Counted from the first letter of the stretch, positions 36,082 to 64,000 are shown. The stretch: 64,000 bases of DNA from an uncultured Methanosarcinales archaeon (GCA_964397315.1 CAYNHV010000002.1:23167-87166), one strand, 5' to 3'. Notes: generated by a model from the letters alone, not told the origin. Numbers and translations are program-made.

Positions 36082-36211
36082 AATAAAGTAAGGATATCTG
36101 ATTATATAAATCTTTCTATTAATTCACCCTCAAAAAGTAGCAAATAACCCGTCAATCAGAACCAAAAATATCGATAAGAACAGACAAGAACATAGGAAAA
36201 ATCACAATGAC

Positions 36212-47945: not shown

Positions 47946-48764
47946 TCACAATGTCTGCTCAATCTTTCCGGCATATTCTATTCTCCTGAGCATATGATTC
48001 AAAAACTGTCCCCTGAATTCCTTTGTTCCGGGGCTGAGTGTTGCCTCAAGCAGGTTCACGTAATTTGAGTATTCCTCAGGAAGCTTCGCATCCAGGGCAT
48101 TCATGCACAGGGTGTCAAGATGTAACGCCTTCTTTATCCTTGCTGTTTCCGCGGCGTAATCCCCAAGCGCCTGGTGCCACAATGCCCAGGCGTTCCTGAA
48201 AAAGCTCTCTCTTCCGCTGTCAGTTTCCTCAAACAGGGAGCAGTAGAAATCATTCTCTGCAGCAATGAGATGGGAGGAGACGTAAAGCCTGTTGAGCGCT
48301 TCAAACATATGCACTCCAAACCCCATGACCAGCTCGTCAAATTTTCTTTCCGGAAGCTGGACTTGCTCGTCATAAAGGTATGACCTTGTTATCTCCTGAG
48401 CGAATATGCTGAACATCAGCCTGACGGACTCGGGAGATAAATCCTCATGATCAGCTTCTTCCTCAAAACACCAGAACGCATACTCTCCTATTATCTCTTG
48501 AGACCTCCTTATGCCAGGAGGTATGTCAGCAGCAGATGAAAGCTTGTCCCTGAAGATGCTGAACCTGCTGCTGTTTATCTCAGCAGGCCCGGTCTCCAGG
48601 GCGTAAATGAGCTCCCCTGATAATCTTGAGGGATACCTCTCCTTCTGCTCTTTCTGCGCTTTCCCCAGCTTTTCCCTGAGCAGCTTATGCCTCACCTTAT
48701 GCTCTGCTAGCTTCCTGTTTGTGTCCTCAAGATAGCCGTCAATAACGTCAAAAGCCATTTTCAC
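47946..48764 (-). CDS. Hypothetical protein (272 aa) coupled to taw1
   Basis: Start overlaps the taw1 stop by 4 nt. No recognisable motifs. Confidence 0.4.
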   Translation of the reverse strand: MKMAFDVIDGYLEDTNRKLAEHKVRHKLLREKLGKAQKEQKERYPSRLSGELIYALETGPAEINSSRFSIFRDKLSSAADIPPGIRRSQEIIGEYAFWCFEEEADHEDLSPESVRLMFSIFAQEITRSYLYDEQVQLPERKFDELVMGFGVHMFEALNRLYVSSHLIAAENDFYCSLFEETDSGRESFFRNAWALWHQALGDYAAETARIKKALHLDTLCMNALDAKLPEEYSNYVNLLEATLSPGTKEFRGQFLNHMLRRIEYAGKIEQTL

Positions 48765-50988: not shown

Positions 50989-51198
50989 GGGCCATTAGCT
51001 TAGTCTGGCAACTGGTTACGCTCAGTTGACACGCAAACGCAAGAGGGGCGTAAAACTGCGTTTTAGCCCCTCGACGAACGTGAGATTTGAGCGTCAGTTG
51101 GGCAATTGGAGCACTGCTCTTATATGACTGTGTTCCGCGCAATGCTGGACACTGCTTGAGCAAAGCAGCGGTCGGGGGTTCAAATCCCCTATGGCCCA
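50989..51198 (+). tRNA. tRNA gene with two large introns (D-loop ~95 nt and anticodon loop ~38 nt); anticodon appears to be UAU (Ile) but is uncertain
   Basis: Acceptor GGGCCAT/ATGGCCC with discriminator A. T-arm GGGGG-TTCAAAT-CCCCT. Anticodon stem CTGCT/AGCAG with loop CTTATA|intron|A. D-stem GCTT/GAGC flanks a ~95-nt insertion. 210 nt minus ~133 nt of introns gives ~77 nt mature. Confidence 0.5.
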
Positions 51199-51290
51199 TT
51201 TTTTATTCGTACCACCGAGCAAAGCGAGTGTGGTACCTGATGGCCGGGTCAAGGAAGAAGACCCTTGGTTCTGAATCCCCTATGGCCCAT
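51183..51290 (+). repeat. att-like direct repeat: the tRNA 3'-end 17-mer AATCCCCTATGGCCCAT occurs twice (51183..51199 and 51274..51290)
   Basis: Exact 17-nt duplication. The second copy is preceded by a degenerate copy of the tRNA 3' half (gagcaaagc...ggttctgaatcccctatggccca). Confidence 0.6.
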
Positions 51291-51399
51291 GGAATAAAGG
51301 CAAAACGCCGATGAAGTCGGCTTTTTGCCTTTTTATATGCCTGATAATCCCGATGAGCTTGCGAGTCGGGATTATCTATGCATTTTATTTCCCATGATA

Positions 51400-51700
51400 T
51401 ATTCCACCTTATATGCATTTGTTTTGGGTGATTCCTCATAGTAATTCCCGCCCTCACTTTACAACCAACAGGCAGGTTCATACCTTCTCCAACTGCACAA
51501 CTCCCTGCTTCTCGCCCCAATAAGCCCGCCCAATGATATGCTTAAAGTGCTCTGAGTGGGTTTGTGCGCTAAGCATATGTGAGGGGGTTGGGTGGCGGGC
51601 GAAGAGGTTTGTATAGCTAAACATGGCGGCGGCAATGCCAGGAGGAATCAGATTTTTATTAGACTAAACTCAGGAGGCATCCCCTTACATTAAATGAGCA
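51400..51700 (+). repeat. Modular intergenic repeat element, copy F
   Basis: Short tandem-unit remnant (tgattcctcatagtaattcccgccc). Core ccccaataagcccgcccaatgatatgcttaaagtgctctgagtgggtttgtgcgctaagcatatgtgagggggttggg at 51519..51590, then gctaaacatggcggcggcaatgccaggagg. Preceded by the hairpin taatcccgatgagcttgcgagtcgggatta. Upstream of the tRNA at 51842. Confidence 0.8.
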
Positions 51701-51841
51701 GTATTTTTAACTCATAAAGAGAGCAGGGCAAAGTAAGAACCCCAGACATTCTAAGAATATTGTAATAAGGCCTCCAATCCTGCCATACGGGCTTTCAAAA
51801 GCAAAATATTTTAAAAGGGGTGTTTAATCCCTACCCCCACT

Positions 51842-51976
51842 GCCCCGGTAGTGTAGAGGTTCCAGAAGGAGGAACCGCACAACCCGGCCAATCATTTCGG
51901 ATTTTCGAGGTCGGAAATCTCCACATGGTTTGGCTGAAAACATCCGAAGACCTGGGTTCGAATCCCGGCCGGGGCG
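51842..51976 (+). tRNA. tRNA, probably Arg (anticodon UCG), with multiple insertions
   Basis: Acceptor GCCCCGG/CCGGGGC with discriminator G. T-arm CTGGG-TTCGAAT-CCCGG. D-stem GTGT/GCAC encloses the hairpin insert ggttccagaaggaggaacc. Anticodon stem CGGAT/ATCCG with loop TTTCGA plus a ~33-nt intron. An extra ~16 nt lies between the D and anticodon arms. Coordinates are approximate. Confidence 0.45.
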
Positions 51977-52040
51977 TATTCCTTCTGGTTATATGCCCTT
52001 ACCTTTATTAAGGAGCTTGAAAACTGAAGAGGTGAGGAGA

Positions 52041-53255
52041 ATGGCTGAGAAGCTTGATATCCACGACTATGATTTACAACTGAAGGGTTGTAAAAAGAGA
52101 ATTGAGGGCGCGGAGCTTTCCGATGCCAACAAGAAGCTTATTCTGGCTTATGAGAGGGCGAGGCAGCTTGATGGGACTGCCATCAGCACGAGGGTGAGGA
52201 CAATGTACTGCCTGCTTGATTTTGCGCTCTTTTTGGGCCGGGATTTGGAAGGGGCTGGCAAGGATGATGTTAAGGAGTTCGTTTATCGTATTGAGAGCAA
52301 GCCCGATTACAGTGTGTGGACTAAATCCAAGTACAGGGGAGTGGTTAAGAAGTTCTTTAAATGGCTCAGGTATGGGGACGAGTATCTGTCCAGGGATGAG
52401 TATCCTGACGAGGTAAGGTGGATTAGGGTTCACGTCAAGAAGAAGGATGAGCCGAAGATTTCCAGGACTGACCTGCTGACAGAGGATGAGATTGAGAAGC
52501 TGATTGAGGCTGCTGACACTCCAAGGGATAAGGCTTTTATAAGCCTGCTCTCTGACTGCGGGGCGAGGATTGGCGAGATAGGCAATCTCAGGATTAAGGA
52601 CGTGTACAGGGATGAGTTCTCATTCCTGGTTCACATTAGGGGCAAGACAGGGGAGAGGGAGGATGCTGTGGTTTACTCAAACCCTTACATTGCCGGCTGG
52701 CTCAACTGCCACCCGATGAAGGATGACAGGGAAGCTCCGTTGTGGGTGAACATGAGAAAGGGCAGGTACCAGTACAGGCAGATGAAGTACAACACCCTGA
52801 GGAGCCTCTGCAGGGAGCTTTTTCAGAAGGCTGGCATAAGGAAGAAGTTTAACCCTCACATTTTCAGGCACAGCAGGGTTACGATAAACATGTCCAGGGG
52901 GATTATGAACGAGGCCCAGGCCAAGGCTTATTTTGGCTGGACTCCTGACAGCAAGATGTTCGCCAGCTACGCGCACCTTGTGAGCAAGGACGCGAATGAC
53001 GCCGTACTTGAGGCTGCGGGCATGAAAACCAAGAGCAAAGAGGGATTGAAGCTGAGGCCAAACACGTGCAAGACGTGCCATTATTCCAACTCTCCCGGGG
53101 CGAACTTCTGCGAGAGATGCGGCAGGCCGCTGAATGCTAAGACCTCGCTCATGTACAGCCAGATGAAGCAGGATGCTTATGAGATTCTGAACAGGCTTAA
53201 GGAAGATCCTGAGTTTATGGAGCTGGCAAAGAGAAAAGTTGAATGTTTAAATTAA
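52041..53255 (+). CDS. int: Tyrosine recombinase/integrase with a C-terminal zinc ribbon
   Basis: Catalytic region HIFRHSRVT...YAHL (R...HxxR...Y). N-terminal SAM-like core-binding domain. C-terminal CKTCHY...CERCGR ribbon. ORF from 51930; Met start ~52041. Confidence 0.85.
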   Translation: MAEKLDIHDYDLQLKGCKKRIEGAELSDANKKLILAYERARQLDGTAISTRVRTMYCLLDFALFLGRDLEGAGKDDVKEFVYRIESKPDYSVWTKSKYRGVVKKFFKWLRYGDEYLSRDEYPDEVRWIRVHVKKKDEPKISRTDLLTEDEIEKLIEAADTPRDKAFISLLSDCGARIGEIGNLRIKDVYRDEFSFLVHIRGKTGEREDAVVYSNPYIAGWLNCHPMKDDREAPLWVNMRKGRYQYRQMKYNTLRSLCRELFQKAGIRKKFNPHIFRHSRVTINMSRGIMNEAQAKAYFGWTPDSKMFASYAHLVSKDANDAVLEAAGMKTKSKEGLKLRPNTCKTCHYSNSPGANFCERCGRPLNAKTSLMYSQMKQDAYEILNRLKEDPEFMELAKRKVECLN

Positions 53256-53257
53256 AT

Positions 53258-53914
53258 TTAAATCTCTTGCCTTATTTCATTTTTGCTTATTTGTGAGATT
53301 CGTTGGATATTCATCAGCATGAAACCTGCATTTCTCATTTTCTTTTCCGTAGGAATGTCTGGTGTTTCATATATTTTCTTGCGTATCTCATTAAATCCTT
53401 TTTTTGTTTCGTTTTTCGCGGTTTCGGCTGATATTCCATCTTCTATAATCCTTCTTATGCCCCTATTGAATTCTTTCGCTTGCGATTTGTAGCTTATATA
53501 CTTTTCAGGTAGAAAATAACATTTATCATTATATCCTAAGCAATATTTAGCGCATTTCTCTACCGCATTTTTACCCAATAGTGTTATTGTCTTACATGCA
53601 ACTAAAATGAGCTTTTTATTCAGAAGTAAATTGATATCTTTTAGGTCGATGATGCTTCTTTTGATTCTTTTTTCCTTGTTCTGCCAGAAAAACATTTGCT
53701 CTTTTGTGCCATGACTGAAGATCATTAAGTAACCATCATTGTTCTTATCTCGCTTAAGAATTTCTTTTAATTTCTTTATTTCATCTACCGATTTTATTTC
53801 GTAAAAGCTGATGCTGTTATTTTCTAGGACGGACTTTATGTGTTTTGCACAAATAGATGCAAATTGTTCACCTAAATCGGCTTCCGAGTTTTGTCTGTGT
53901 ACTAATATATTCAT
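53258..53914 (-). CDS. Hypothetical protein (218 aa), AT-rich
   Basis: ORF only; low GC relative to host genes. Confidence 0.35.
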   Translation of the reverse strand: MNILVHRQNSEADLGEQFASICAKHIKSVLENNSISFYEIKSVDEIKKLKEILKRDKNNDGYLMIFSHGTKEQMFFWQNKEKRIKRSIIDLKDINLLLNKKLILVACKTITLLGKNAVEKCAKYCLGYNDKCYFLPEKYISYKSQAKEFNRGIRRIIEDGISAETAKNETKKGFNEIRKKIYETPDIPTEKKMRNAGFMLMNIQRISQISKNEIRQEI

Positions 53915-55231
53915 TTATTTTGATGATTCTCGCTGTAGAGAGTATAGGTGGTAATCTATAATGCCATACAGATAGGATTGTGCGAATTCTTTTCCTTCTT
54001 CTGTATTATTTTTAACAAGTTCATATATTTTTCTGGGAGTATAGGCTTCGCCTTCGGAGGTGTATACAATTGGCTCATCTGCTTCTGAAGAGTCAATCCA
54101 ATTTTCAACAACCCTCAAAAACATCTGTTTGATGAATTCATTTATAACAGCATTATCTATACTATTATCACTCTCACCGTCTCCTTGTTCGTTTTCCATA
54201 TCGCTTTCTTCTTTAGTAGCATTAATATAAAAATGTTGCGTTTCCTTCGTTTTTCTTTTTAGTTTTTCTTCGGGAACATTTTCAAAAATTGCCTTAGTCT
54301 TCTTCTTTACTTCAATGTCATATTCCGGCTCAGGATACTGATAAAGCACGACATTCTTAATTACCTGGCCACAATATCCCTTGTAAAGGTCATCTTCACA
54401 ATTTCGCAATCCTTTTCCCGTGTCAAACAGATCATAGCAGATATTTGCTTTTATCGGCTGATTTTCTTGCTCATCAATGCCTTCAAATGGTGACCCGTTA
54501 AAACTTTTCTGGTTGTAGCGGATTATCTTTTTATCAGGGAACTTTTCTTTAAAAATGTCTTCAAGACCACGCGGGCCTCTGGGGCCCAGTTCTTTGTTTA
54601 CCAAGCATATGTGAGTGAAGGAATTTCTGTTGTTTCCATTCATTAGATTGGCATAGTACTCAACCAGGCATTCGGCGTCTTCATTTTTATCAGTCCAAAA
54701 ATCAAACCATATAAGGTAATCTTTTAGGTTCCCCTTGGATACTACAAAGGTTTCGTCATGTCTTGGCACCGCCATGTAGAAGGGCATTTTATAGCCTAAG
54801 TCAAACTTTTCCTTTCTTTCTCTTGCGTGAATAAAATAATCTCCGATATATTGGTATAGATTCATGAATTTATTCATCTCGATGGTATACATGGGGTCAT
54901 GTGTGTCGAGGAAAGCATATATATTGGAGGCAAGCTTAGAGAATAAATCCTTGAAGGCTTCAAGCTTGATTGCATATGTCTCCGTTAGCAAACTGCGCAT
55001 TTTGAACAAACATAGGCAAAATGACTCATAATAGTTAAAAATTTCAGATCTTGAAGACAGATATAACATTTTTGCACTGTCCGTGTTCAGTGAGCGGCTG
55101 TGGCCATTCTCAGAACAAAACTCCCAAGTGTCTTTTATGAAATCGTCAAAGGTGTTATTCTCGTAATTGTTGACAAACCACCCAAGAGTTTCGTTTACTT
55201 TAGTTTCAGCACGTTGTTGGTCAAGTATCAT
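53915..55231 (-). CDS. Hypothetical protein (438 aa), AT-rich
   Basis: Stop abuts the start of the downstream gene (53914/53915). No recognisable motifs. Confidence 0.4.
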   Translation of the reverse strand: MILDQQRAETKVNETLGWFVNNYENNTFDDFIKDTWEFCSENGHSRSLNTDSAKMLYLSSRSEIFNYYESFCLCLFKMRSLLTETYAIKLEAFKDLFSKLASNIYAFLDTHDPMYTIEMNKFMNLYQYIGDYFIHARERKEKFDLGYKMPFYMAVPRHDETFVVSKGNLKDYLIWFDFWTDKNEDAECLVEYYANLMNGNNRNSFTHICLVNKELGPRGPRGLEDIFKEKFPDKKIIRYNQKSFNGSPFEGIDEQENQPIKANICYDLFDTGKGLRNCEDDLYKGYCGQVIKNVVLYQYPEPEYDIEVKKKTKAIFENVPEEKLKRKTKETQHFYINATKEESDMENEQGDGESDNSIDNAVINEFIKQMFLRVVENWIDSSEADEPIVYTSEGEAYTPRKIYELVKNNTEEGKEFAQSYLYGIIDYHLYSLQRESSK

Positions 55232-55259
55232 TATGACACCTCCATTCCATAAAATTTAT

Positions 55260-55586
55260 TTATGGAATATCAACCCCATGCTTTCGTAAAAATTTATCGA
55301 GTTGCTCCGGGGTAGAATTGGAAACTTTCTTTTCTAAAAGGTCAAGAGGGACCGAATCGAGTATAGTTCCAATGGAACTAAGGTAGTAGCCGAATCTCTT
55401 GAGTTTATCAATAAGCTTAAGCCTTAATACATCTTCTTCGCTATAAAGATATCTTTGATTGTTATGATGCTTTTTTGGCTTTAAAAGATTCAAATCTTTA
55501 TAACGTTGAATTGTAGGGTCGGAAACACTAGTATCAGCCTTTTCCTTTAGTTGACTTAGGCTTAAATTGTACTCTAACTCTTTCAT
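55260..55586 (-). CDS. MerR-like HTH transcriptional regulator (108 aa)
   Basis: RYLYSEEDVLRLKLIDKLKRFGYYLSSIGTIL resembles the MerR wing/dimerisation helix. Confidence 0.45.
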   Translation of the reverse strand: MKELEYNLSLSQLKEKADTSVSDPTIQRYKDLNLLKPKKHHNNQRYLYSEEDVLRLKLIDKLKRFGYYLSSIGTILDSVPLDLLEKKVSNSTPEQLDKFLRKHGVDIP

Positions 55587-55901
55587 GTTGTTCCTTACCT
55601 ATAAGCTATTAGACCTCATATCTAATCTATTAGATAGCACATTTTGTAGCTAAAGTCAACAACTGAGCCGAGATTTTCTCGTTGGCCCCGACACTACAAA
55701 CAGAAATGTATGTTGTGAATGCCGGTAGTGCCACTCGCAACCGGCTCATTGGATTTCGTACTATATAGCATTGAAATCTCAGGGTTTCAAGTAGAAGCAG
55801 TAGGCACCAGCTTTTGACGTGTCGTGCCTCTTGGCATGTCCCAGCCCATATCCTGTTTTGCCCTTACTTTTATTTAGCTGCTTTTCCATCGTGGAATAAC
55901 T

Positions 55902-56303
55902 ATGGGAGAGGATGATGGCGGTGTTTTTCAGGACATGATCTCCGGGAGGATTAAGGACATCCGGGAGGCCATTGACGAGATTGAGGGGGAGATAAAGCAG
56001 AGGCGGGACATTGATGAGCGGGTTCTGGAGGAGATTAGGGCTGAGATTCTGAAGGTTCGCAATCGCATTCTGGAGGTTGAGCAGTTCACAGGCTCTTCCC
56101 AGTCCGGTGAGCTTCCGGGCGTGGATACTCTGGAGCGGGAGGTTGTGAGCCTGGAGGGTGAGAAGCGCATGGAGTCTGTCTCCTGCTGGAGGGATTTGAC
56201 GAGCCTTCGGAAGGAGCTGAGGCTTTACATGAGGGAGCTGAATGACCTGTTGAGAAAAGCGAAGATGGTGAGGCCGGATGCAGGAAGTGGAGAAGCTGCT
56301 TAA
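55902..56303 (+). CDS. Coiled-coil protein (133 aa) upstream of the ATPase
   Basis: Heptad-rich, Glu/Arg-rich sequence. Overlaps the ATPase gene start by 26 nt. Confidence 0.4.
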   Translation: MGEDDGGVFQDMISGRIKDIREAIDEIEGEIKQRRDIDERVLEEIRAEILKVRNRILEVEQFTGSSQSGELPGVDTLEREVVSLEGEKRMESVSCWRDLTSLRKELRLYMRELNDLLRKAKMVRPDAGSGEAA

Positions 56304-58320
56304 GAAGCTTGAGCCTCAGCTCGGCGGGAGGGCGGATGAGATTTACAGGGTTTACCTGCTGGAGGATTCCAGGGGGCGGAATGAGATTCATCAGTATCTT
56401 ATGACGCTTTACAATCAGAGCCTTTCCACTCCGTTGGATGACAAAGTTGTGCTGGTTCCTCCGCCGGGGGATTTGGCAGGGGGTGAGATGCCCATAGCCA
56501 CGGTGAGGTATGCTGACCGCGACCTGTATGAGTTCTCCCTGAGGAGGGGTGAGCTGCCCATGCATTGCCTTGTGGTGGGTGATACGGGCAGCGGGAAGAC
56601 GAATTCAATCTACGCTCTGATTTCCAATCTTATGCTGCAGAGGATTCCTTTTTTGATTTTTGATTGGAAGCGTGAGTTCAGGAGGATACTCAATTCCGAG
56701 AGCTGCTCTGATGTTCTTGTTTTTACTGCCGGGGGTGAGGCAAGTCCTTTTTACTTCAATCCCAGGATTGCGCCGAAGGGTGTTGATCCTGAGGTTTATC
56801 TCAAGAAGGAAGTGGATAATATCGCCTATGCCTACTTTTTGGGAGAGGGTGTTGGGGAGCTTTTGAGGGAGGTTCTTCATGAGACAAATGAGGATTACGG
56901 CGTTTACTCCGGTGATTTAAAGGAATACCCGAATTACTTTGATGTTCTGCAGAAGCTTGAGGGAAGGAAGCCAAAGGGCAGGGAGCTTTTATGGTATCAG
57001 TCCACTCAGAGGGCGTTGCGCGCCCTTACCTTCGGCAAGTTCGGGAAGGCCATTAACATAAGGCAGGATGTGGATGTTGAGTCCCTGCTGGAGAGGAATG
57101 TGATTATTGAGCTGGACGGGCTTAACAAGGCTGACGGCAAGTATATCATGACCTCATTGCTTTCCAGGATTTACTTTTACAGGCTGGCTCATGCTCACGA
57201 GAATAAGGGCTTGCACGCGATTATTATTGATGAGGCGCATCATTTGTTTTTGAGAAAGCCTTCTTATGCGCAGGGTGAGGAGCACATCACGGATATTCTG
57301 CTGAGGGAAGCCAGAAGCCTGGGGGAGTGTCTTGTCCTGTCTGACCAGTACCCTCACATGCTCACATACACTGCCTTTGGTGTTTATACCAAGATTGTGA
57401 TGAGCCTGGGTAATCGCACTGATATTAACCTTGCAGCGGATATTCTGCTGCTGGGTAAGGATGAGAGGGAGTGGCTTGCCAAGCTGCCAATAGGCTCGGC
57501 AATAGTGAAATTAAAAGCAAGGTATCCTTCTCCTTTTCTGGTTCATTTCCCGCTCATGAAGCTTCCAGAGGAGCCTGTTACTGACGATATTGTGAGGGAG
57601 AGGATGAAGGGGTATTGGGAAGAACAGAAGGTTATTCCGGTTATTCCAGGCCAGCAAGAGGGTTATTCCGGCCCTGTTAAGCCAGAGGGGGTTGTTCCGA
57701 AAGGTGATAAGGGTGGTGCGGAAAGAGCGGAATATCTCCTGCTCCTTGATGTTTTGAGGTTTCCTCTCTCCTCTACTGTTAAGAGGTATGAGAGGCTGGG
57801 CTTTAGCAAGAGGGCGGGCAATGACGCAAGGGGCACTCTTGAGGAGCAGGGGCTTGTGAGGGCTGTTGATGTTCCAACAAAAAAGGCAAGGGTGAGGCTT
57901 CTGGAGCTTACTGACAGGGGCAGGGAGCTTCTAAAGTCCCGGGGTGAGGACATAAGCAATTCCATGAGGTTTGGGAGCGTGGAGCACCTTTACTGGGTTG
58001 CCATACTCGCAAAGGAATCCAGGATAACGATATTTTGCGAGGGCAGGGGTTTTGAGCTTGAGGTTGAGCACGCTATTGGCGGTGGGAAAACTGTTGACCT
58101 TGCGGCAGTAAAGGGGGAGAGGAGGATTGCCTTTGAGGTTGAGACAGGAGCTTCTGATGCTGTATCCAATGTCCGTAAGTGTTTGGAGGCCGGTTTTGAG
58201 AGGGTTTACTGCCTTCCCACATCGCACACTGCAATGAAGAAGATATCGCGGGAGCTGGAAAAGGCCGGGCTTGCAGGGGATAAGAGGGTTAAGCTGAAGC
58301 ACGTGAAAAAAATGTTTTGA
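56278..58320 (+). CDS. HerA/FtsK/VirB4-like P-loop ATPase (AAA_10/DUF87-type), probable DNA translocation or conjugation ATPase
   Basis: Walker A VVGDTGSGKTNS and Walker B IIIDEAHHLF (DEAH). C-terminal wHTH-like region plus a possible PD-(D/E)xK-like region. 680 aa. Confidence 0.6.
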   Translation: MQEVEKLLKKLEPQLGGRADEIYRVYLLEDSRGRNEIHQYLMTLYNQSLSTPLDDKVVLVPPPGDLAGGEMPIATVRYADRDLYEFSLRRGELPMHCLVVGDTGSGKTNSIYALISNLMLQRIPFLIFDWKREFRRILNSESCSDVLVFTAGGEASPFYFNPRIAPKGVDPEVYLKKEVDNIAYAYFLGEGVGELLREVLHETNEDYGVYSGDLKEYPNYFDVLQKLEGRKPKGRELLWYQSTQRALRALTFGKFGKAINIRQDVDVESLLERNVIIELDGLNKADGKYIMTSLLSRIYFYRLAHAHENKGLHAIIIDEAHHLFLRKPSYAQGEEHITDILLREARSLGECLVLSDQYPHMLTYTAFGVYTKIVMSLGNRTDINLAADILLLGKDEREWLAKLPIGSAIVKLKARYPSPFLVHFPLMKLPEEPVTDDIVRERMKGYWEEQKVIPVIPGQQEGYSGPVKPEGVVPKGDKGGAERAEYLLLLDVLRFPLSSTVKRYERLGFSKRAGNDARGTLEEQGLVRAVDVPTKKARVRLLELTDRGRELLKSRGEDISNSMRFGSVEHLYWVAILAKESRITIFCEGRGFELEVEHAIGGGKTVDLAAVKGERRIAFEVETGASDAVSNVRKCLEAGFERVYCLPTSHTAMKKISRELEKAGLAGDKRVKLKHVKKMF

Positions 58321-58444
58321 TGGTGAGAGCATAGCAGCAGGCAATATTTTCAGGGCGCTGGAGCCGCTTCAATACCTGAACATAGGCGGCATATATTCGC
58401 AATACTCGGCAATCCTTGACTTTTTCGTTTTCCTGATACTTTTC

Positions 58445-59503
58445 ATGGGTCTTTCCAGGGCTGCATTCGGGAAGAGGTTTGAGGGCAGTGGCGGGAAGGC
58501 TGTCACCATTGGCGTGGGAGTTTCCCTTGCTCTGGGCTTGTCTGCAGCTGAGGCAAAGTTCGGCTTTAATCTTGGCTCTTTTGGTGTCTTTGCTCTTGGA
58601 ATTATAGTTGTTGCTTTCGGGCTTTTATTTTTCTATTTGCTCTCTGCCCTGGGAGCGCACAAGAGCACGGCTGCTGCTCTGTCATTTCTTATAGCCTATT
58701 CCTTCCTTAATTCCATTTCGGGAAAGCTCACTCTAATGATTCAGAAGAAGTTTCCAATACTGAATCTCCTGTTTTTGGCCTCGCTTGTTTTTGTGATTAT
58801 CAGGGGTGTTTCGTTTCTGGGTGTTGGTTCAAAGCTTAAAACATCTGGGAAGAATATGCTGAGGAAAGGCTCTGAGTATGCCCGCCATATTCCGTTGAGG
58901 GAGGAGAAGCTTGAGAGGAAAACACAGCGCAGGGAAGCAAAGGGTATAAGCAGGGAGAGGAAAACAAGCTCCAGGATGTTGAAACAGCTTCAGGAGATAA
59001 GGGAGCTAATCAAAGAGCATGGCGGAAGCGAGAAGGGCAGAAAGGCCATTGTGGAGCAGATTGAGAGCCTCTCCACAGGCGAGAACAAGCTGGTTCAGAA
59101 GCTCGCGCATTTAAAAGAGCTGGACAAGCAGCTTGAGGAGCTTGATATTCTGGCGGTGCGGAAGCTGAAAGAGGAGCAAAGCGAAGTGCCCGATGAGTTA
59201 AGGGCTGAGATAGAGAAGGAAATCAGGGCTGAGAAGGACAAGCACGGGCTGAGCAGGAAGATGGAGGGGTATGAGAGCCGGATAAAGGCCTCAGTTGACG
59301 GCTTCAACCGGGCAATGCTCTCCTGCATTGAACGCCTCGGAGAGAACCGCATTGCAGAAGCATTGCAGGCCGTGGACGAGGCCATAAGCTGCCAGAAGCG
59401 GATAGAGGGCCTGCTTGCTGAGATGGAAAGGACAGGCCGGATAATGAAGGGCCTGACAAAACGAGAGTACAAGAGCATGAAACGCACTAAAAAAGCTGCG
59501 TGA
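58445..59503 (+). CDS. Membrane protein with a C-terminal coiled coil (352 aa)
   Basis: 4–5 N-terminal TM helices and a Lys/Glu-rich coiled coil. Confidence 0.4.
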   Translation: MGLSRAAFGKRFEGSGGKAVTIGVGVSLALGLSAAEAKFGFNLGSFGVFALGIIVVAFGLLFFYLLSALGAHKSTAAALSFLIAYSFLNSISGKLTLMIQKKFPILNLLFLASLVFVIIRGVSFLGVGSKLKTSGKNMLRKGSEYARHIPLREEKLERKTQRREAKGISRERKTSSRMLKQLQEIRELIKEHGGSEKGRKAIVEQIESLSTGENKLVQKLAHLKELDKQLEELDILAVRKLKEEQSEVPDELRAEIEKEIRAEKDKHGLSRKMEGYESRIKASVDGFNRAMLSCIERLGENRIAEALQAVDEAISCQKRIEGLLAEMERTGRIMKGLTKREYKSMKRTKKAA

Positions 59504-59512
59504 GGTGAAAAA

Positions 59513-59692
59513 ATGGCAGAAGAAGAAAAGAAGTTTGAGGACAAGCCGATACTGGAGAGCCAGTATCGTAAGAGCAAGGACGGAAAATACCTGATACACA
59601 GGGTGACCATCACCACCATAAAGCCGGTGAAGTATCTTGAGAAGGTGCTTGAAGGCTCTACAGGTGATGAAGCCGATGACTTGGAAATCTAA
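59513..59692 (+). CDS. Small hypothetical protein (59 aa)
   Basis: MAEEEKKFEDKPILESQYRKSKDGKYLIHRVTITTIKPVKYLEKVLEGSTGDEADDLEI. GAGGTGA SD 7 nt upstream. Confidence 0.3.
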   Translation: MAEEEKKFEDKPILESQYRKSKDGKYLIHRVTITTIKPVKYLEKVLEGSTGDEADDLEI

Positions 59693-59895
59693 TAAATGGG
59701 CCTGATGTAAAACAATGGTCTTATGCTGTTTTTTTATTTTTTACTTTTTCTTCATATGTATTTACAAACCTCCGATTTTCTAATTTCGTATACGGCACGG
59801 CAACCCCATACATTTTGTTTTCGGCTGAAGCCTGAAAACAAATGAGGGGTTTGCCTCAAAGGCCGTAATTAAAAAATTAACGGAGGTTGAAAAAA

Positions 59896-60069
59896 TGAAT
59901 GAAGTAAAAAACCAAAAACAGAAAAACTTTAGGATAAAAGTTATAACATCAGGCAGGACAGGCCATAAGCTTGTCATAATCGAAGATGAAAGAGACAGAA
60001 ACAGGGTTGACATCTATTCTCTAAGATACTTCGAAGCGATTGTGAAAAGAATTAACAGTTGCTGCTAAT
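59896..60069 (+). CDS. Small hypothetical protein (57 aa)
   Basis: MNEVKNQKQKNFRIKVITSGRTGHKLVIIEDERDRNRVDIYSLRYFEAIVKRINSCC. GGAGG SD upstream. Confidence 0.3.
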
Positions 60070-60135
60070 TTTTTCTTCTTATTCTTTATATTTTTTTTAG
60101 ACGCTATTTCTTCATTATACGAAGGCTTAAAAAAA

Positions 60136-60170
60136 GGGCTGGAGTCTCCCCCAGCCCTTTGCTGTTTTGG
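60136..60170. terminator. GC-rich hairpin GGGCTGG-AGTCTCCC-CCAGCCC flanked by A- and T-tracts, between convergent genes
   Basis: 7-bp perfect stem flanked by AAAAAAA on the 5' side and TTTGCTGTTTT on the 3' side. A bidirectional terminator-like structure. Confidence 0.4.
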
Positions 60171-60185
60171 TTGTTCGGTTGCGGG

Positions 60186-60503
60186 TTAGCTTTCGGCTTG
60201 TTTGCCTTTGCCGTTCAGGTGGATTTTCTGGGCGATGATTTTCAGCCTGCTTCTGTTCCGGCCTTCGTTGTCCTGGAATCTTTCCTGTTTGAGCCTGCCT
60301 TCAACCTGCATGGCCTTTCCCTTGCTGATGTACTGTCCGGCTATGTCCGCCAGTCCGTTGAAGCACGTTATTGGCAGGTAGCTGACGTTGTCGTCGTAGT
60401 TGCAGGCCAGCGTGAAGGTGGCGATTTTCAGGCCTTCCGCTTCCTTGTACTCCGCGTCTTTTGTGGCCCTTCCGCTTACGATTGTTTTGTTGAGGTCTCT
60501 CAT
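60186..60503 (-). CDS. ssb: Single-stranded DNA-binding protein, bacterial OB-fold type
   Basis: LNKTIVSGRATKDAEYKEAEGLKIATFTLACN...GQYISKGKAMQVEGRL...SRLKIIAQKIHL follows the bacterial SSB pattern; 105 aa. Confidence 0.7.
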   Translation of the reverse strand: MRDLNKTIVSGRATKDAEYKEAEGLKIATFTLACNYDDNVSYLPITCFNGLADIAGQYISKGKAMQVEGRLKQERFQDNEGRNRSRLKIIAQKIHLNGKGKQAES

Positions 60504-60671
60504 CTTCTTCTCTCCTTTCCGAGGGTTAGGGGTTTAGTTTGGTATGTTGTAAATATTTTGTGTGGCGAGGGGTTTCTTCCCCCCTCGCCGTTTCGCAGCT
60601 GCTCCACCCGCAGAAGGGGCAGTGGAAGCATCCTCCGGCTGGTATGAGCCTTGCTCCGCAGTCCGGGCATC

Positions 60672-61487
60672 TCATTTCTGGCTCCTTTCCTCCCATCTGC
60701 TCAGGATTTTCCTGCTGGTCTGGTGTATGGCCTCAAGGGATTCCTCAAGGCTGCAGGACTTCTGATAAAGGGCTAAGTATTTCTCCGAGTTCGTCTCCGG
60801 GATTCCGAGAGCCTGGGCGACGACGTAGGCGGTGGCTTCTGCCTCAAGCTCCTTCTGCTCCCTGGTAAGCTTTGGCCTTGTCTCCGGGTTCCAGTGCAGC
60901 AGCTCGTGGGCAAGCTCGTGAATGAGAATTAAAGCTTTCTCAGTGGGGTTCTTGCTGCTCTGGATTTTGATTTTTCCGTTGGTTGAGACTCCCTCGCAGT
61001 TGGCAAGGTCTGCGAATTCAACCTCAATATTCCTCTCCCCGGCCAGTTTGAGGAGCTTTTCCAGTGCCCCGGCGTGGGTGTCATCTATGGGCTTGAATTC
61101 TATCTCCGGCATCTCCTCGCCTTCTGTCTGGCTGATGTCAAAAACGCAAACCGGGAAAAAGAAGGAAACGTCCTTCTCAACCTCAATCTCCTCTCCTGTC
61201 TCCGGGTCAACCTCTGTCTCCTTCTTCTTATAAGTGGATGGGGCAAGTATGCTTATTCCTTTTTCTCCTTTTCTGACCTGCCTTCCCAGCTTCTGCCATG
61301 TCCTGTATCCCGCCACTCTCGTGGCCTGCGGGTTCTGAAAGTGAATCAACAGCGTGTTCCGCCATGAGTAGGAATGAAAATGCGCCATGCAGTCCAGGAC
61401 AGCCCTGAACTCCTCTGAGGACTGAATCTCCCTGATTCCCTCGCTAAGCTTCTTTAACAACGCCTTTGTCTTCTCTCTGCCTTTCAT
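60672..61487 (-). CDS. ardC: ArdC-like antirestriction protein (ssDNA-binding N-domain plus HExxH metalloprotease C-domain)
   Basis: N-terminal domain FHSYSWRNTLLIHFQNPQATRVAGYRTWQKLGRQVRKGEKGISILAP is the ArdC-N/DUF1738 signature. C-terminal LILIHELAHELLHW. ORF extends to 61541; Met start taken at 61487. Confidence 0.75.
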   Translation of the reverse strand: MKGREKTKALLKKLSEGIREIQSSEEFRAVLDCMAHFHSYSWRNTLLIHFQNPQATRVAGYRTWQKLGRQVRKGEKGISILAPSTYKKKETEVDPETGEEIEVEKDVSFFFPVCVFDISQTEGEEMPEIEFKPIDDTHAGALEKLLKLAGERNIEVEFADLANCEGVSTNGKIKIQSSKNPTEKALILIHELAHELLHWNPETRPKLTREQKELEAEATAYVVAQALGIPETNSEKYLALYQKSCSLEESLEAIHQTSRKILSRWEERSQK

Positions 61488-61488
61488 T

Positions 61489-61716
61489 TTATAAATCCTC
61501 CTCTCCGAAATTGAAATGAAGCTGCTCTGAATTAACCTCAACCTTCGACAGCCTCACCCGGCTGCCCTTGACCTCAACCTTGAAACCTGCCAAAAACTGC
61601 ATCCCTGTTTCCTCAACGAATTCCATCACCTCGCTTTCCAAAGCCGGGATGTCCTCGGCCAGCCTCTGCCTGAAATAAAGGCTTCTCAAAACCCTTGCTG
61701 CCTGCTTAACCGTCAT
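61489..61716 (-). CDS. Small hypothetical protein (75 aa) upstream of the ardC-like gene
   Basis: ORF only; stop immediately adjacent to the ardC start. Confidence 0.3.
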   Translation of the reverse strand: MTVKQAARVLRSLYFRQRLAEDIPALESEVMEFVEETGMQFLAGFKVEVKGSRVRLSKVEVNSEQLHFNFGEEDL

Positions 61717-62197
61717 AACTTCCTAACTCCTAAACCCCCACAAAACCATTTTTTTCTTCCCTCTCTTCACCCCGGGACAGAGAGAGGAAGAAAAAACAGA
61801 TATAGGAAGATTCCGGAGCTTCCCGGAATAAAGCCTTAGAAAATCTTATTTTTTCAGGTTGTCAGAGGGTGAGCGGAGCTACGCTCGGGAAGGGGCTGTC
61901 GGTTCTGAAAAAATTAAGTGCAAGGGAAATTTTGAATCGCGAAGAATTTTTTCAGGCAAACACTCCCAGCAGCTCTAAATAACTGAAAAAAGAGGAAAAT
62001 TTCCTGCAGCACAGAAGATTTTCAAGGAATTTTTGGAGGGAAAACGAAGGAATCACAACCGCAAAAAGAAAAAAAGCCCCCAATGGGGGTTTGGGGGGAT
62101 TAAAAGTTCAAATGGATTGACGAATTAGATATTTTTGTTAACTTATGCTAAAAAAGGTAATTTTGGATAAGCTAATTCTTGAAAAGGAGGTTTTTTA

Positions 62198-62455
62198 ATG
62201 AATTTTTTGCATTATGAGATTGATGCTGGACCCGATAATGTAATTGAAGTAACACTTGATAAACAAGCTAATGTTCGTTTACTAGATGGTGATAATTTCC
62301 GTAAGTATAAACGAGGTGGAAAGCATAACTATTATGGAGGTCTTGCAAAAGTTTCCCCTTTTAGAATTTCTCCACCACGTCAAGGCCATTGGCATTTAGT
62401 TATAGACCTCGGAGGATACCCAGGAACGGTCAAAGCATCCGTAAGCGTTATATAG
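62198..62455 (+). CDS. DUF1883-like small protein (85 aa)
   Basis: MNFLHYEIDAGPDNVIEVTLDKQANVRLLDGDNFRKYKRGGKHNYYGGLAKVSPFRISPPRQGHWHLVIDLGGYPGTVKASVSVI matches my recollection of the DUF1883 pattern (NVxLxDxxNFxxYKxG...YxGGxAK...P..GHWHxxxD). SD AAGGAGG 8 nt upstream. Confidence 0.5.
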   Translation: MNFLHYEIDAGPDNVIEVTLDKQANVRLLDGDNFRKYKRGGKHNYYGGLAKVSPFRISPPRQGHWHLVIDLGGYPGTVKASVSVI

Positions 62456-62464
62456 AGGATAAAG

Positions 62465-62863
62465 TTGGATAATCCAGAGGACGTAAGAAAAGAGAAAGAG
62501 TTTCACCCTGCCATAAGGCGTGCTCGTATATCAACTCTTATCATATATGAGATTTCGGACAGTGAGCTTGATACTATTGCACGTGGCTCACCAGCATCCA
62601 TATATTTAAACTTAGCAATATTTTTATTAACTGTTTTTATTTCATTTCTAATTACTCTACTTACAACTCCTCCTAGCCCAAACAGAATGTTTACAGTCTT
62701 TTTGGTAATCGCTGCTATTTCCTTTGTAGGTGGCTTTACACTTTTGTGTTTATGGGTGCATAGATATAGGTCTACAACTAAGATGATAGATACCATCAAG
62801 AATAGACTTCCACCCGAAGGAGTACCTGAAATTATGACAGAAGAAGATGATAATAAGAAATAA
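62465..62863 (+). CDS. Small membrane protein (132 aa, 2 TM)
   Basis: Two hydrophobic helices; starts 10 nt after the DUF1883-like gene. Confidence 0.4.
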   Translation: MDNPEDVRKEKEFHPAIRRARISTLIIYEISDSELDTIARGSPASIYLNLAIFLLTVFISFLITLLTTPPSPNRMFTVFLVIAAISFVGGFTLLCLWVHRYRSTTKMIDTIKNRLPPEGVPEIMTEEDDNKK

Positions 62864-62898
62864 TTGCAGAGCAGATCTGTAGTGAAAGGACCGAAAGA

Positions 62899-63330
62899 AT
62901 GGAAGATGTCGAAAAAGTAAAAGCCTATGTCGAACTTGGTAAGATACAAATGGATCGTTTTAATAAGCGACGCGATATTGAATGGAAAGTTACGATTTTG
63001 ATATGGACAGGAATTTTTGTCCTTACTGGATTTCTGGCCGGCAAAGCTAAAATGGAGTTGGCAGATCTTTTTCTTTATGCTGCAATATGGATCATTTTTT
63101 CTTTTGGCTGGACTCCCGGTCTTTGGATGGCTAATGAAACTGATAAACAATACGCCGAGGTATATCTTAACAGAGTTGAGCTACTAATTGGGCACACGTG
63201 TATAAAAAAGAAGTTTGAAAAACCACGACGTTTTGGATTCCTCCGTAATTGGTCGAGGCTTTCTCAAATCATTGTAACTGGGATTTTGTTGTTTTTTAGC
63301 TGGTGTTTTCTGACAAGAATTCCAGTATGA
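62899..63330 (+). CDS. Small membrane protein (143 aa, 3 TM)
   Basis: Hydrophobic helices; co-oriented with the two preceding genes. Confidence 0.4.
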   Translation: MEDVEKVKAYVELGKIQMDRFNKRRDIEWKVTILIWTGIFVLTGFLAGKAKMELADLFLYAAIWIIFSFGWTPGLWMANETDKQYAEVYLNRVELLIGHTCIKKKFEKPRRFGFLRNWSRLSQIIVTGILLFFSWCFLTRIPV

Positions 63331-63403
63331 TCAAGGCGGGTTTTAGAATAAATCTTGGCTTACACTACTATTGTTTAACTTCTTATTTGTGAGGATAGGA
63401 TGA

Positions 63404-63880
63404 TTATCGTTTTTTGTCGTTCATTTGTTTTGATAATGAAGGTGTCAAAATAAGGGGGGTAGAAGATTTTAGAATTCGAAATTTGAAAAATATATTTATG
63501 CAGCACATTGTTATACCAAATAGATATATGAAAATAAAAATATCAATAATCTTTACTGATAAGGATGATGGTTGAATCGAAAAGGCTGAACAAAAAAGGA
63601 TGTGGAAGAATGAGAAGAACATTAAAGAAATAATAGAGGTGAGAAGCACTTCAATCGAACCGGGTAAACGGTCGGATATGTTCTTTAATTTTAGCATCTC
63701 TTTTGAGGGGCCAAGTGGCTGACGACAATATTTTTCAAACCTATATTGTTCAAAATAGTATTGACTGCATAGATTTATCAAAATGCTCATCAATGACCAT
63801 GACGCAATAAACGCTCCCAAGCCAGTTGCAAAAATAAGGAATGGTAAATTGCCGGGTAATAGCGAGACTGCTTTATCCAT
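63404..63880 (-). CDS. Membrane protein (158 aa)
   Basis: Four predicted TM helices; AT-rich. Confidence 0.35.
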   Translation of the reverse strand: MDKAVSLLPGNLPFLIFATGLGAFIASWSLMSILINLCSQYYFEQYRFEKYCRQPLGPSKEMLKLKNISDRLPGSIEVLLTSIISLMFFSFFHILFCSAFSIQPSSLSVKIIDIFIFIYLFGITMCCINIFFKFRILKSSTPLILTPSLSKQMNDKKR

Positions 63881-64000
63881 AAATAAATCCTTAGCAAGAC
63901 AAATGAATTTACTGGCTATTTACTCTGCTTTCAATTCCATTCGGATAAGGTCGAGCTGGAATATGAAGCTCTTTCAATATTTTCTCGAAATAGCTACGAT

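Follow-up and report, generated by a model that had tools for sequence, protein, structure and literature searches.

The known systems closest to the locus described here are integrated elements of archaea. In the dark-matter islands of archaeal genomes, one of the top families is an integrase-associated HerA-like ATPase, arCOG00280 (Makarova et al. 2014, PMC4158269). Cryptic integrated elements (CIE) have been defined as a class, with att cores down to 8 bp (PMC6563490, PMC8371274), and were described in Thaumarchaeota by Krupovic et al. 2019 (PMC6563490). Archaeal integrative conjugative elements are recognized by a VirB4/TrbE plus VirD4/TraG ATPase pair, a VirB6-like membrane protein and pilins (PMC6563490). 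The region that starts at position 51,842 of the window (the whole 64,000-nucleotide stretch of DNA that was analysed) is probably a plasmid-like integrative element of the cryptic kind, which entered the genome at the 3' end of a tRNA-Glu(UUC) gene. The host is a DPANN archaeon, Woesearchaeota/Nanoarchaeia-like. With the Thaumarchaeota CIE and the arCOG00280 islands, the locus shares a multigene, tRNA-adjacent organization, a tyrosine integrase, an integrase-linked HerA-like ATPase, the lack of viral or canonical conjugation signature genes, a content of mostly unknown, fast-evolving genes and possibly a very short att. It differs from them in its DPANN host, which lies outside the scope of those surveys and of the 2021 integrase review (PMC8371274), in the C-terminal Zn ribbon of its integrase, and in its ATPase, which bears a fused winged helix-turn-helix (wHTH) and nuclease-like domain and is accompanied by two dedicated partners.

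The presumed integration target, on the attL side, is the tRNA-Glu(UUC) gene (51842..51976, plus strand). It is indeed a multi-intron tRNA, as the earlier note had claimed: one intron lies in the D-loop (about 51858-51882) and another in the anticodon loop (about 51907-51941), and ARAGORN applied to the in-silico spliced sequence returned tRNA-Glu(UUC) for each consistent splice. In the alignment, its exons match base for base the tRNA-Glu of two syntenic DPANN relatives (L006 and L007). The introns of these two differ, one gene carrying the anticodon-loop intron only and the other the D-loop intron only. Default-mode ARAGORN found no tRNA in the window, and Rfam at the gathering threshold misses tRNA-Glu, its sole match being the neighbouring tRNA (51100-51198). 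The identity Val(CAC), obtained in ARAGORN single-intron mode on the unspliced gene, was rejected as an artefact, because this mode permits only one intron. Just left of tRNA-Glu, a dispersed repeat is found (51440-51590), where an independent Logan contig breaks. The neighbouring tRNA bears an att-like scar, with copies only about 75 nt apart, which indicates that elements do decay at the tRNA locus.

The integrase gene (52041..53255, plus strand) begins with an ATG at 52041, leaving a gap of 64 nt after the tRNA-Glu 3' end at 51976. This agrees with the earlier claim of a tyrosine integrase with a C-terminal Zn ribbon some 65 nt past the tRNA. The 404-aa product has an N-terminal SAM-like domain, a catalytic domain (Phage_integrase PF00589, 1.9e-17, residues 146-313) and a C-terminal Zn ribbon, with further Pfam matches to Zn_Ribbon_1 (PF13240), DZR (PF12773) and PF13495 and a match to PHROG 1 (integrase) at 1.9e-27. 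Its translation keeps the catalytic pattern R...K...HxxR...W...Y (ARIGE, GKTG, HIFR, GW and SYAH) as well as the CxxC...CxxC pattern of the Zn ribbon. It is an intact classical lambda-type integrase with an unsplit gene, and this intact gene adjoins the tRNA junction, as is the case for class II (classical) archaeal integrases. More than 671 homologues were found, those with a name coming mostly from DPANN MAGs. The same position of an intact int beside the tRNA-proximal junction is found in the class II integrative plasmids of the pNOB8/lambda paradigm, a likeness extended by the ParB and Orc1/Cdc6 genes of related loci. Membership of the pNOB8-type integrase subfamily was nevertheless rejected: its consensus is R...YxxR...Y (PMC8371274), whereas our integrase has HxxR (HIFR). 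Unlike those plasmids, the available sequence also displays neither a VirB4/TrbE plus VirD4/TraG pair nor an att duplication.

Comparison with related genomes, the test that the earlier note had named, gave empty sites. In L006 and L007, TYW1, the first tRNA and tRNA-Glu stand in identical order, and after tRNA-Glu neither integrase nor cargo is present but unrelated host genes (in L006 a MazG-like gene, then the rRNA operon). As the same tRNA pair occurs without integrase or cargo in two syntenic relatives, the region is an insertion, and this insertion next to tRNA-Glu is lineage-specific. An ancient fixed region is not supported.

No repeat of any part of tRNA-Glu or of its 3' flank was detected in 52045-64733, beyond chance 8-9-mers, in agreement with the earlier statement that attR is not in the window. 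This result would also follow if the region were the immobile relic of a single old insertion or of several, a fixed genomic island with its attR gone, and the scar at the neighbouring tRNA and the mosaic composition of the region also fit such decay. However, all genes are intact and free of frameshifts, the catalytic residues of the integrase are kept, and the insertion is missing from relatives whose TYW1 is 73-80% identical, so that it is evolutionarily recent. With the right end simply lying beyond the available sequence, as it probably does, we regard decay as improbable. Mobility itself is only presumed, because the available sequence offers no attR.

A misjoin of a bacterial mobile-element fragment to an archaeal contig, in assembly or binning, might be suspected from the bacterial relatives of the single-stranded DNA-binding protein (SSB), the ArdC-like protein and the ATPase cassette, and from the contig break at the dispersed repeat. 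Yet tRNA-Glu, int and the cassette all lie on a single Logan contig, L003, which covers 51533-58963 at 100% identity. A third relative, L004, comes from a different MAG and is collinear from TYW1 to the first 15 nt of tRNA-Glu, where its contig breaks. The intron-bearing tRNA-Glu is archaeal, and most named members of the integrase family come from DPANN MAGs. The probability of such an artefact is therefore close to nil.

The element carries a module of three plus-strand genes. The first encodes a coiled-coil partner of 133 aa (55902..56303), which overlaps the start of the ATPase gene by 26 nt and is thus the coupled coiled-coil protein noted earlier. In 71 of 90 loci it directly precedes the ATPase. 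It is 54% identical in the related locus L037 and 26% identical (E 3e-10) to the partner in the bacterial locus L028, and matches DUF8104 and SF-assemblin weakly. The second gene (56278..58320) encodes an ATPase with a P-loop domain of the HerA/FtsK clade (about residues 60-450), a MarR-type wHTH (about 480-555) on its C-terminal side and a PD-(D/E)xK-like domain (about 565-680). Its DUF87/HerA match (1.6e-9) is accompanied by a Walker A motif GDTGSGKT and a Walker B motif IIIDEAHH, and GxxGxGKT and DExH are invariant in the family. The C-terminal domain is probably a PD-(D/E)xK nuclease, as suggested by weak Foldseek matches (E about 3e-3) and a conserved acidic motif. The third gene (58445..59503) encodes a membrane protein of 352 aa, with N-terminal transmembrane (TM) helices and a C-terminal coiled coil. 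It has no Pfam family, but hhalign relates it (probability 95%, E 3e-8, 223 columns) to a 359-aa membrane/coiled-coil family adjoining the ATPase in seven other loci, and by this profile match and gene order it is assigned to the ATPase module, which includes such a protein in a subset of loci.

Of the HerA/VirB4-like label given earlier to the ATPase, the HerA part holds. The best Foldseek match is 4d2i (E 3e-15), and HerA, DndH and the defence HerAs all rank above the VirB4 structures. A VirB4 identity was rejected on this ranking and on the lack of a CagE_TrbE_VirB Pfam match.

The cassette was found in at least 300 metagenomic loci. In L037, int (72% identical), partner (54%) and ATPase (72%) are contiguous, and L116 repeats the layout of tRNA, 79 nt, int and ATPase. 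Among the 90 loci, the Zn-ribbon integrase family is found near the cassette in 26 and Orc1/Cdc6 in 24; of the 19 loci whose flanks extend for 4 kb or more on each side, 11 have one or both. The identities of integrase and ATPase show no clear co-variation beyond L037. The ATPase had earlier been listed among the cargo: its presence stands, but, judged from the L037 contiguity and its spread over these loci, the cassette is conserved backbone rather than cargo.

A conserved motif, TGCCCTTACCTTTATTAAG, lies on the plus strand 23-47 nt upstream of the int ATG (51994..52018). It is invariant 5' of int in the window and in L037, L038 and L039, while its flanks diverge. A second copy, TGCCCTTACTTTTATTTAG, is located upstream of the partner/ATPase operon (55859..55883, plus strand), and L037 has TTTGCCCTCAGCTTTAAG at the equivalent position. 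The motif thus precedes int as well as the partner operon, in the window and again in L037, and it is probably the element's own promoter/operator.

The ATPase could alternatively belong to an anti-virus or anti-plasmid defence or exclusion system carried by an integrative island, and not be a transfer or replication motor. A HerA hexamer would then scaffold and activate a nuclease effector fused in cis, and the integrase linkage would reflect the usual siting of defence cargo beside integrases. Foldseek indeed groups the ATPase with the defence ATPases SIR2-HerA, DUF4297-HerA, TdpAB and DndH, and PADLOC gives partial matches of the ATPase to HerA models and mad8 (5e-12) and of the MerR-like protein to mad1 (6e-7). 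In L030/L031, the cassette lies within a defence island, together with type I R-M, AAA_15/21, nSTAND and AbiEii. The core fold and the combination of a hexameric DNA translocase with a nuclease are also those of the end-resection machine NurA-HerA and of SIR2-HerA, DUF4297-HerA and TdpAB, which the fused nuclease-like domain parallels. In our ATPase, however, this domain is in cis behind a wHTH, and NurA, SIR2, DUF4297 and mad2-7 are absent; PADLOC finds no complete system. The partners are a coiled-coil and a membrane protein, and to our knowledge no solved HerA defence complex has a dedicated membrane/coiled-coil partner. The conservation of the cassette and its linkage to one integrase family and to Orc1/Cdc6 far exceed what is usual for variable defence cargo, and its upstream motif is shared with int. 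We consider a defence role possible but rather unlikely.

The combination of ATPase and nuclease also follows the functional logic of a terminase, and Makarova et al. 2014 (PMC4158269) gave integrase-linked HerA-like ATPases the annotation 'possible viral DNA pumping ATPase'. The region could in this case be a provirus, whose FtsK/HerA-type ATPase would serve in genome packaging, with the capsid genes lying outside the window. Weak PHROG matches to the terminase large subunit (3.3e-5) and to phrog_7035 point the same way. The ATPase found here is much larger than the known FtsK/HerA enzymes that package DNA in membrane-containing icosahedral viruses. PHROG detected no viral hallmark gene in the window, capsid, portal and other virion genes are absent from the visible 12.9 kb and from about 90 related loci, and IMG/VR contains no relatives, even with the family alignment as query. 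The neighbours Orc1/Cdc6, ParB and ArdC are plasmid-like. A provirus is thus very improbable.

As claimed earlier, the GC content is mosaic: 0.468-0.477 in the host, 0.502 in int, 0.361 in 53256-55838, 0.496 in 55839-61716 and 0.372 in 61717-64733. The first AT-rich block (53256..55838, 2.6 kb) holds three minus-strand genes, encoding proteins of 218 aa (53258-53914) and 438 aa (53915-55231) and a MerR-family HTH protein of 108 aa (55260-55586; MerR_1 3.4e-12), the MerR-like regulator of the earlier note. Of 1.84 billion, just 24 representatives match the 438-aa protein at E<=1e-3, and none of the three genes recurs near the cassette in related loci. In L037, int is followed by a 66-nt spacer and then the partner gene, and this spacer aligns to 55839-55904 of the window. 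The block is thus a discrete insertion, since the int-partner spacer of L037 lacks it, and the composite nature suggested for the element is confirmed. The second AT-rich block (61717..64000, on to at least 64733) is of uncertain membership. It encodes a DUF1883 protein (62198-62455, plus strand; 1.9e-27), three ORFs rich in TM segments and, on the minus strand, an ORF that continues past the window edge, the latter four matching no family. It bears no att repeat or boundary signal and was not found in any related locus.

Between these blocks, the cassette is followed by two small plus-strand ORFs (59513..60068) of 59 aa (59513-59692) and 57 aa (59895-60068), called on the identical Logan contig L001 and having no Pfam match, and then by minus-strand genes. 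The SSB (60186..60503, 105 aa) is of the bacterial OB-fold type, as read earlier (PF00436 1.5e-20, residues 4-95; PHROG 44); it has no acidic C-terminal tail and ends ...LNGKGKQAES after the OB fold. The ArdC-like protein (60672..61487, 271 aa) combines, again as claimed, the ArdC-N ssDNA-binding domain (ArdcN PF08401 3.5e-15) with an M78/HExxH metalloprotease domain (Peptidase_M78 PF06114 1.1e-6, HELAH motif) and matches PHROG 7245 (anti-restriction). A 75-aa ORF (61489..61716, minus strand, called on L001) lies directly upstream with a 1-nt gap and matches no family in Pfam, PADLOC or PHROG.

Relatives of the SSB (35-38% identical) reside on 1,158 bacterial plasmids, of which 82% are conjugative, and full-length ArdC relatives (36-42% identical) occur on 1,990 plasmids, annotated ArdC-like proteins included. 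These relatives come mostly from conjugative or mobilizable plasmids. The pair resembles the leading-region ssb/ardC genes of bacterial conjugative plasmids, being adjacent, co-oriented, full length and 35-42% identical. It departs from such leading regions in belonging to an element of an archaeon, in having no visible relaxase, oriT or T4SS for company, in the missing acidic tail of its SSB, and in not recurring across the element family. Neither protein is mentioned in the Thaumarchaeota survey (PMC6563490). The earlier description of such genes as unusual for an archaeon holds only in part: another Nanoarchaeota MAG has an annotated ArdC of 46% identity, and a clade at 68-78% occurs on further contigs. 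SSB and ArdC are non-recurrent accessory genes: neither recurs with the cassette, except for ArdC in L028, a bacterial integrative element in which ArdC (35%, E 9e-34), ATPase and partner are linked.

The cargo had been described as typical of conjugative or integrative elements. The empty sites in L006 and L007 bear out the integrative part, but 'conjugative' is not demonstrated, because a VirB4/VirD4 pair, VirB6, pilin and relaxase, and likewise a replication gene, are not recognisable in the visible 12.9 kb. In 51.8-64.7 kb, part of an element that the window cuts short, only a single HerA-clade ATPase is found, and the distant second ATPases of relatives are not recognisably VirB4.

For the cryptic integrative element that we favour, the following mechanism can be proposed. 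Excision and integration by the integrase would take place at a short att core that overlaps with the 3' end of the tRNA. The three-gene module may be the element's own DNA-handling motor: a membrane-tethered hexameric pump would find the element DNA through its wHTH, cut it with the nuclease domain and translocate it, in the service of either transfer or segregation/replication. SSB and ArdC would be accessory 'establishment' genes taken from bacterial conjugative-plasmid gene pools, the former coating incoming or replicating ssDNA and the latter, with an anti-restriction role predicted from its domains, blunting host restriction. Both AT-rich blocks may be later cargo insertions. Judging from relatives, the remainder of the element beyond the window may include Orc1/Cdc6, ParB, ThiF/E2 or a second ATPase.

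Streptomyces TraB is an FtsK-like conjugative dsDNA translocase with a C-terminal wHTH, membrane-associated and found on integrative and plasmid elements. Our ATPase, a lone pump of the FtsK/HerA superfamily whose wHTH is likewise C-terminal, may resemble it in architecture. Plasmids of Streptomyces and Rhodococcus encode DUF87 proteins that tblastn matched weakly (26-29% across the ATPase core). Unlike in TraB, membrane anchoring would here be in trans, and the extra nuclease-like domain has no counterpart there.

The kind of element is fairly ordinary: its backbone is found in other integrative elements of archaea, and its DNA-protection genes are such as conjugative plasmids of bacteria typically carry. 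It is the conserved module that is uncharacterised. As a speculation to which we attach a low probability, this module could be a minimal, relaxase-independent DNA-export machine that moves integrative elements of DPANN, other archaea and some bacteria between cells; SSB and ArdC would then imply that the DNA enters the recipient single-stranded. If true, this would represent a conjugation-like route in ultra-small symbiotic archaea, possibly across the symbiont-host contact.

The host is judged to be a DPANN archaeon from the host genes in the window (archaeal class I LysRS, TYW1, CorA, MscS and others) and from the best genomic matches. For TYW1 (48761-49702, minus strand), identity is 80% with a MAG of Woesearchaeota and 73% with MAGs of Nanoarchaeia and Nanoarchaeota, and nucleotide-level synteny with relatives extends over several kilobases. 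MAG JAWOBY01 carries two TYW1 copies on separate contigs (L004 and L005), 80% and 76% identical to that of the window, which suggests a mixed bin or a duplication.

No tRNA was called in the window by ARAGORN in default mode, and Rfam at the gathering threshold reported only the intron-bearing tRNA at 51100-51198. At 51842-51976, the acceptor halves match, the T-arm is canonical and the anticodon loop reads UUUUCGA, with two interruptions. Once about 25 nt in the D-loop and about 34 nt in the anticodon loop are excised, ARAGORN calls a tRNA-Glu(UUC), whose exons align base for base with the tRNA-Glu of the syntenic DPANN relatives L006 and L007. The multi-intron tRNA described in an earlier note on this DNA is therefore real. 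A valine call, obtained on the unspliced gene in single-intron mode, is a miscall; standard tRNA finders miss or miscall this two-intron gene. The window has both introns, L006 (7659-7780) just the one in the anticodon loop and L007 (251-366) just the one in the D-loop. Such variation among close relatives suggests that introns are gained and lost rapidly in these lineages of DPANN archaea.

In L006 and L007, both tRNAs lie downstream of TYW1 in the same order as in the window, and tRNA-Glu is directly followed by unrelated genes on the opposite strand (in L006, a MazG-like gene and then a 16S-tRNA-23S operon). The closest relative, L004, is collinear with the window until 15 nt inside tRNA-Glu, where its contig ends. 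On this comparative evidence, the region after tRNA-Glu is read as an insertion, and L006 and L007 represent relatives without it. The junction between tRNA and integrase did not arise when the window was assembled, since a Logan contig from a separate assembly (L003) covers 51533-58963 at 100% identity; an artefact of assembly is thus very unlikely.

The gap between the two tRNAs is 3-4 nt in L006 and L007 and about 645 nt in the window and L004. Something was inserted between them (51199-51841) and has since mostly decayed. The final 17 nt of the first tRNA (51183-51199) have an exact second copy 91 nt downstream (51274-51290), with about 24 nt of looser similarity; the copies are about 75 nt apart and resemble an att scar. 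A dispersed repeat of about 130 nt (core AATAAGCCCGCCCAATGATATGCTTAAAGTGCTCTG...GGTTGGTGCGCTAAGCATATGTGAGGGGG) has at least six intergenic copies (51440-51590, 46780-46920, 38020-38150, 43370-43460, 2345-2425 and, reversed, 11870-11990). For five of the six, the next gene or tRNA follows about 250-370 nt downstream in a shared orientation; for the sixth, the distance is about 620 nt. The consensus folds weakly and shows little covariation, and one copy contains a Logan contig break. The repeat could be a promoter or leader element, a MITE or a small RNA.

The right boundary (attR) had been placed outside the window, and no repeat of the tRNA end occurs through 64733. The tRNA-Glu 3' end (...CCCGGCCGGGGCG(TATTCCTTCT)) was searched for as a 20-mer with up to three mismatches, by blastn-short (word size 7), as sliding 11-16-mers with mismatches on both strands and as exact 8-10-mers; for the tRNA or its 3' flank, only chance 8-9-mers were found in 52045-64733. 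A short att core is plausible, since published archaeal cores go down to 8-13 bp (PMC6563490, PMC8371274) and, in L037 (an element with a 72%-identical integrase), only a stretch of about 11 nt upstream of the integrase resembles a tRNA-Glu 3' end. A scan of JGI metagenomes with the ORF crossing the window's right edge gave zero matches, and the 92 related loci included no circular (episomal) contig or complete tRNA-bounded element. In L038 (9900-10000; also L039), a 66%-identical integrase lies beside host EF-1alpha/S10 genes, with an apparent tRNA 3' half (GGGTCGCGGGTTCAAATCCCGCCGGGTCCA, opposite strand) directly upstream; target and orientation differ from those in the window.

The integrase starts at an ATG at 52041, 64 nt past the tRNA, and consists of a SAM-like N-domain, a PF00589 domain (1.9e-17) and a CxxC...CxxC zinc ribbon at the C-terminus, in agreement with the earlier note. 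Its organisation is classical, but the box is HxxR here and YxxR in the pNOB8 type. This zinc-ribbon family is abundant in DPANN genomes. Domain searches also bore out the MerR-family HTH protein (55260-55586, minus strand), the 133-aa coiled-coil partner (55902-56303), which shares 26 nt with the start of a DUF87/HerA ATPase of 680 aa (56278-58320), the 105-aa SSB (60186-60503, minus strand, PF00436) and the 271-aa ArdC-like protein (60672-61487, minus strand) with ArdC-N and M78/HExxH domains. A DUF1883 protein is encoded at 62198-62455.

The GC mosaic noticed earlier is evident in segment values of 0.361-0.502 from the integrase gene to 64733: 0.502 in the integrase gene, 0.361 in 53256-55838, 0.496 in 55839-61716 and 0.372 in 61717-64733, compared with 0.468-0.477 in host regions. 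In L037, the spacer between integrase and partner is only 66 nt long and aligns with window positions 55839-55904. Segment 53256-55838, directly past the integrase stop codon and containing the 218-aa, 438-aa and MerR genes, is thus a discrete AT-rich insertion, in line with the composite element proposed from the base composition. The 438-aa protein is a near orphan (24 representatives at E<=1e-3 among 1.84 billion). The AT-rich blocks are best read as later cargo. A second low-GC island (about 23000-36100, 0.384 versus about 0.47) encodes GH113, PRTase, a TrmB-like regulator, a MazE-domain protein, a 655-aa Ser/Thr kinase and a 908-aa STAND-like NTPase with HEAT repeats, and may be another variable or defence-type island.

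Integrase (72% identity), partner (54%) and ATPase (72%) are contiguous in L037. Close relatives of the ATPase are few, and a family-alignment scan of JGI metagenomes gave at least 300 relatives. All ORFs were clustered in 92 loci, with counts given out of 90. The partner lies directly upstream of the ATPase in 71 of the 90, a zinc-ribbon integrase of the same family occurs in 26 (mostly just downstream) and an Orc1/Cdc6-like protein in 24; ThiF, RadC/JAB, DNA methylase and DUF6573 are sporadic. Seven loci encode a 359-aa membrane/coiled-coil protein, a homologue by hhalign of the 352-aa protein in the window (probability 95%, E 3e-8). The window's layout is found again in L116 (tRNA, 79 nt, integrase, ATPase). 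The SSB, 218-aa, 438-aa, MerR and DUF1883 proteins do not recur beside the partner-ATPase cassette in the 92 loci. ArdC does so only in the bacterial integrative element L028 (35% identity, E 9e-34), adjoining an ATPase with 34-36% identity and a partner with 26%. The best-supported reading of these neighbourhoods is a backbone of zinc-ribbon integrase and three-gene HerA-wHTH-nuclease module, to which SSB and ArdC do not belong. Co-divergence of integrase and ATPase was rejected as an argument for a shared backbone, being true for L037 only; lower identities do not track.

Three elements related through the cassette, L037 (1-9900), L028 (15886-21974) and L033 (91-2621), encode a further DUF87-like ATPase that is very distant (21-25% identity) and accompanied by ThiF/E1-like genes, in L037 also by Prok-E2 and ParB. 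The association with ThiF is thus common to the DPANN-type L037 and the bacterial L028. A VirB4 identity of these second ATPases found no support on testing.

Motif TGCCCTTACCTTTAT is invariant upstream of the integrase in four elements, and is found again upstream of the partner operon in the window and L037. The copies at 51994 and 55859 are at promoter distance from both start codons, which suggests that integrase and module are co-regulated. For the same reason, and because the motif is upstream of the integrase at other sites and of the L037 partner, a reading of the repeat as att sites bounding a 3.9 kb mini-element was rejected.

Full-length homologues of SSB and ArdC are found on bacterial plasmids: ArdC-like genes on 1,990 PLSDB plasmids (36-42% identity) and this SSB type, here without an acidic tail, on 1,158 (35-38% identity, 82% conjugative). 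More than 2,400 proteins belong to the ArdC family, and the clade closest to the window's protein (68-78%) is on short contigs. Named relatives at 45-49% are from Halanaerobiales, a Nanoarchaeota MAG has one annotated at 46%, and a 54%-identical ArdC lies in an unrelated Rad52/PDDEXK/R-M context. The L120 ArdC context was rejected as a guide to the element's remainder, as it is a different kind of element. Both genes are best described, by homology, as promiscuous accessory genes of mobile elements with bacterial affinities. The claim that this cargo is unusual for an archaeon holds in part, given the Nanoarchaeota ArdC; neither gene is confined to this archaeon. The two would be acquired establishment or anti-restriction genes.

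The AlphaFold model of the ATPase (pLDDT 84) best matches Sulfolobus HerA (E 3e-15), followed by DndH-C, TdpAB, the SIR2-HerA and DUF4297-HerA complexes, and VirB4. This ranking indicates a HerA/FtsK-clade ATPase; of the "HerA/VirB4-like" label, the first half is retained and a specific affinity to VirB4 is not. The last 200 residues, modelled alone (pLDDT 92), form two parts. Foldseek matches the C-terminal alpha/beta domain to the nuclease domains of Can2, Cdn1 and AF1548 (E about 3e-3 at a probability of about 1), sub-threshold profiles point to Hjc, Cas4 and AF1548, and E597, D607, E620 and E622 are invariant, with K634 near-invariant. The agreement makes a PD-(D/E)xK nuclease likely but not proven.

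The structural neighbours of the ATPase, together with one defence-island context of the cassette, speak for the main rival reading, in which the module serves defence or exclusion, with HerA and nuclease fused in cis. PADLOC found no complete defence system, only partial matches to mad8, HerA models and mad1. We consider this reading rather improbable. The defence-island loci L030/L031 have the cassette, preceded by an HTH_17 protein, in a typical defence-island setting: a type I R-M system and its AAA_15/21 ATPase lie on one side, an nSTAND NTPase of 1,346 aa and AbiEii on the other. The 2.8 kb "tRNA-Leu" calls there (ARAGORN intron mode) are implausible artefacts.

We moderately favour a cryptic integrative, plasmid-like element, of a class already recognised (PMC6563490). 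From the conservation of the module, its linkage to integrase and Orc1/Cdc6, its membrane partner and the upstream motif that it shares with the integrase, we infer that the module would be the element's own DNA-handling motor. Of the earlier "conjugative or integrative", the first is not established, as no VirB4/VirD4 pair, VirB6, pilin or relaxase is recognisable in the visible part of the element. A provirus is unlikely, as virion genes are absent from the visible part here and from relatives and IMG/VR holds no match: scans with the ATPase, integrase and ArdC singly and with the family alignment returned zero relatives.

HerA-like ATPases linked to integrases (arCOG00280) rank among the most frequent families of archaeal dark-matter islands, with no assigned function (PMC4158269), and the module is probably this "HerA-like helicase". 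DPANN mobile elements are not mentioned in a 2021 review of archaeal integrases (PMC8371274), and the searchable literature yielded no account of such DPANN integrative elements, zinc-ribbon integrases or archaeal ArdC/SSB cargo, which is weak evidence. DPANN mobile elements are barely described, and this locus is a clean example with an empty-site comparison. It links a DPANN-abundant zinc-ribbon integrase family to a widespread uncharacterised HerA-wHTH-nuclease module, and shows that DPANN archaea and bacteria share mobile-element genes, namely ArdC, SSB and the cassette. The module is the part most worth pursuing. If it is a defence system, it would add a cis-fused HerA-nuclease type; should it be a transfer motor, it would be relevant to the spread of archaeal integrative plasmids without recognisable conjugation genes.
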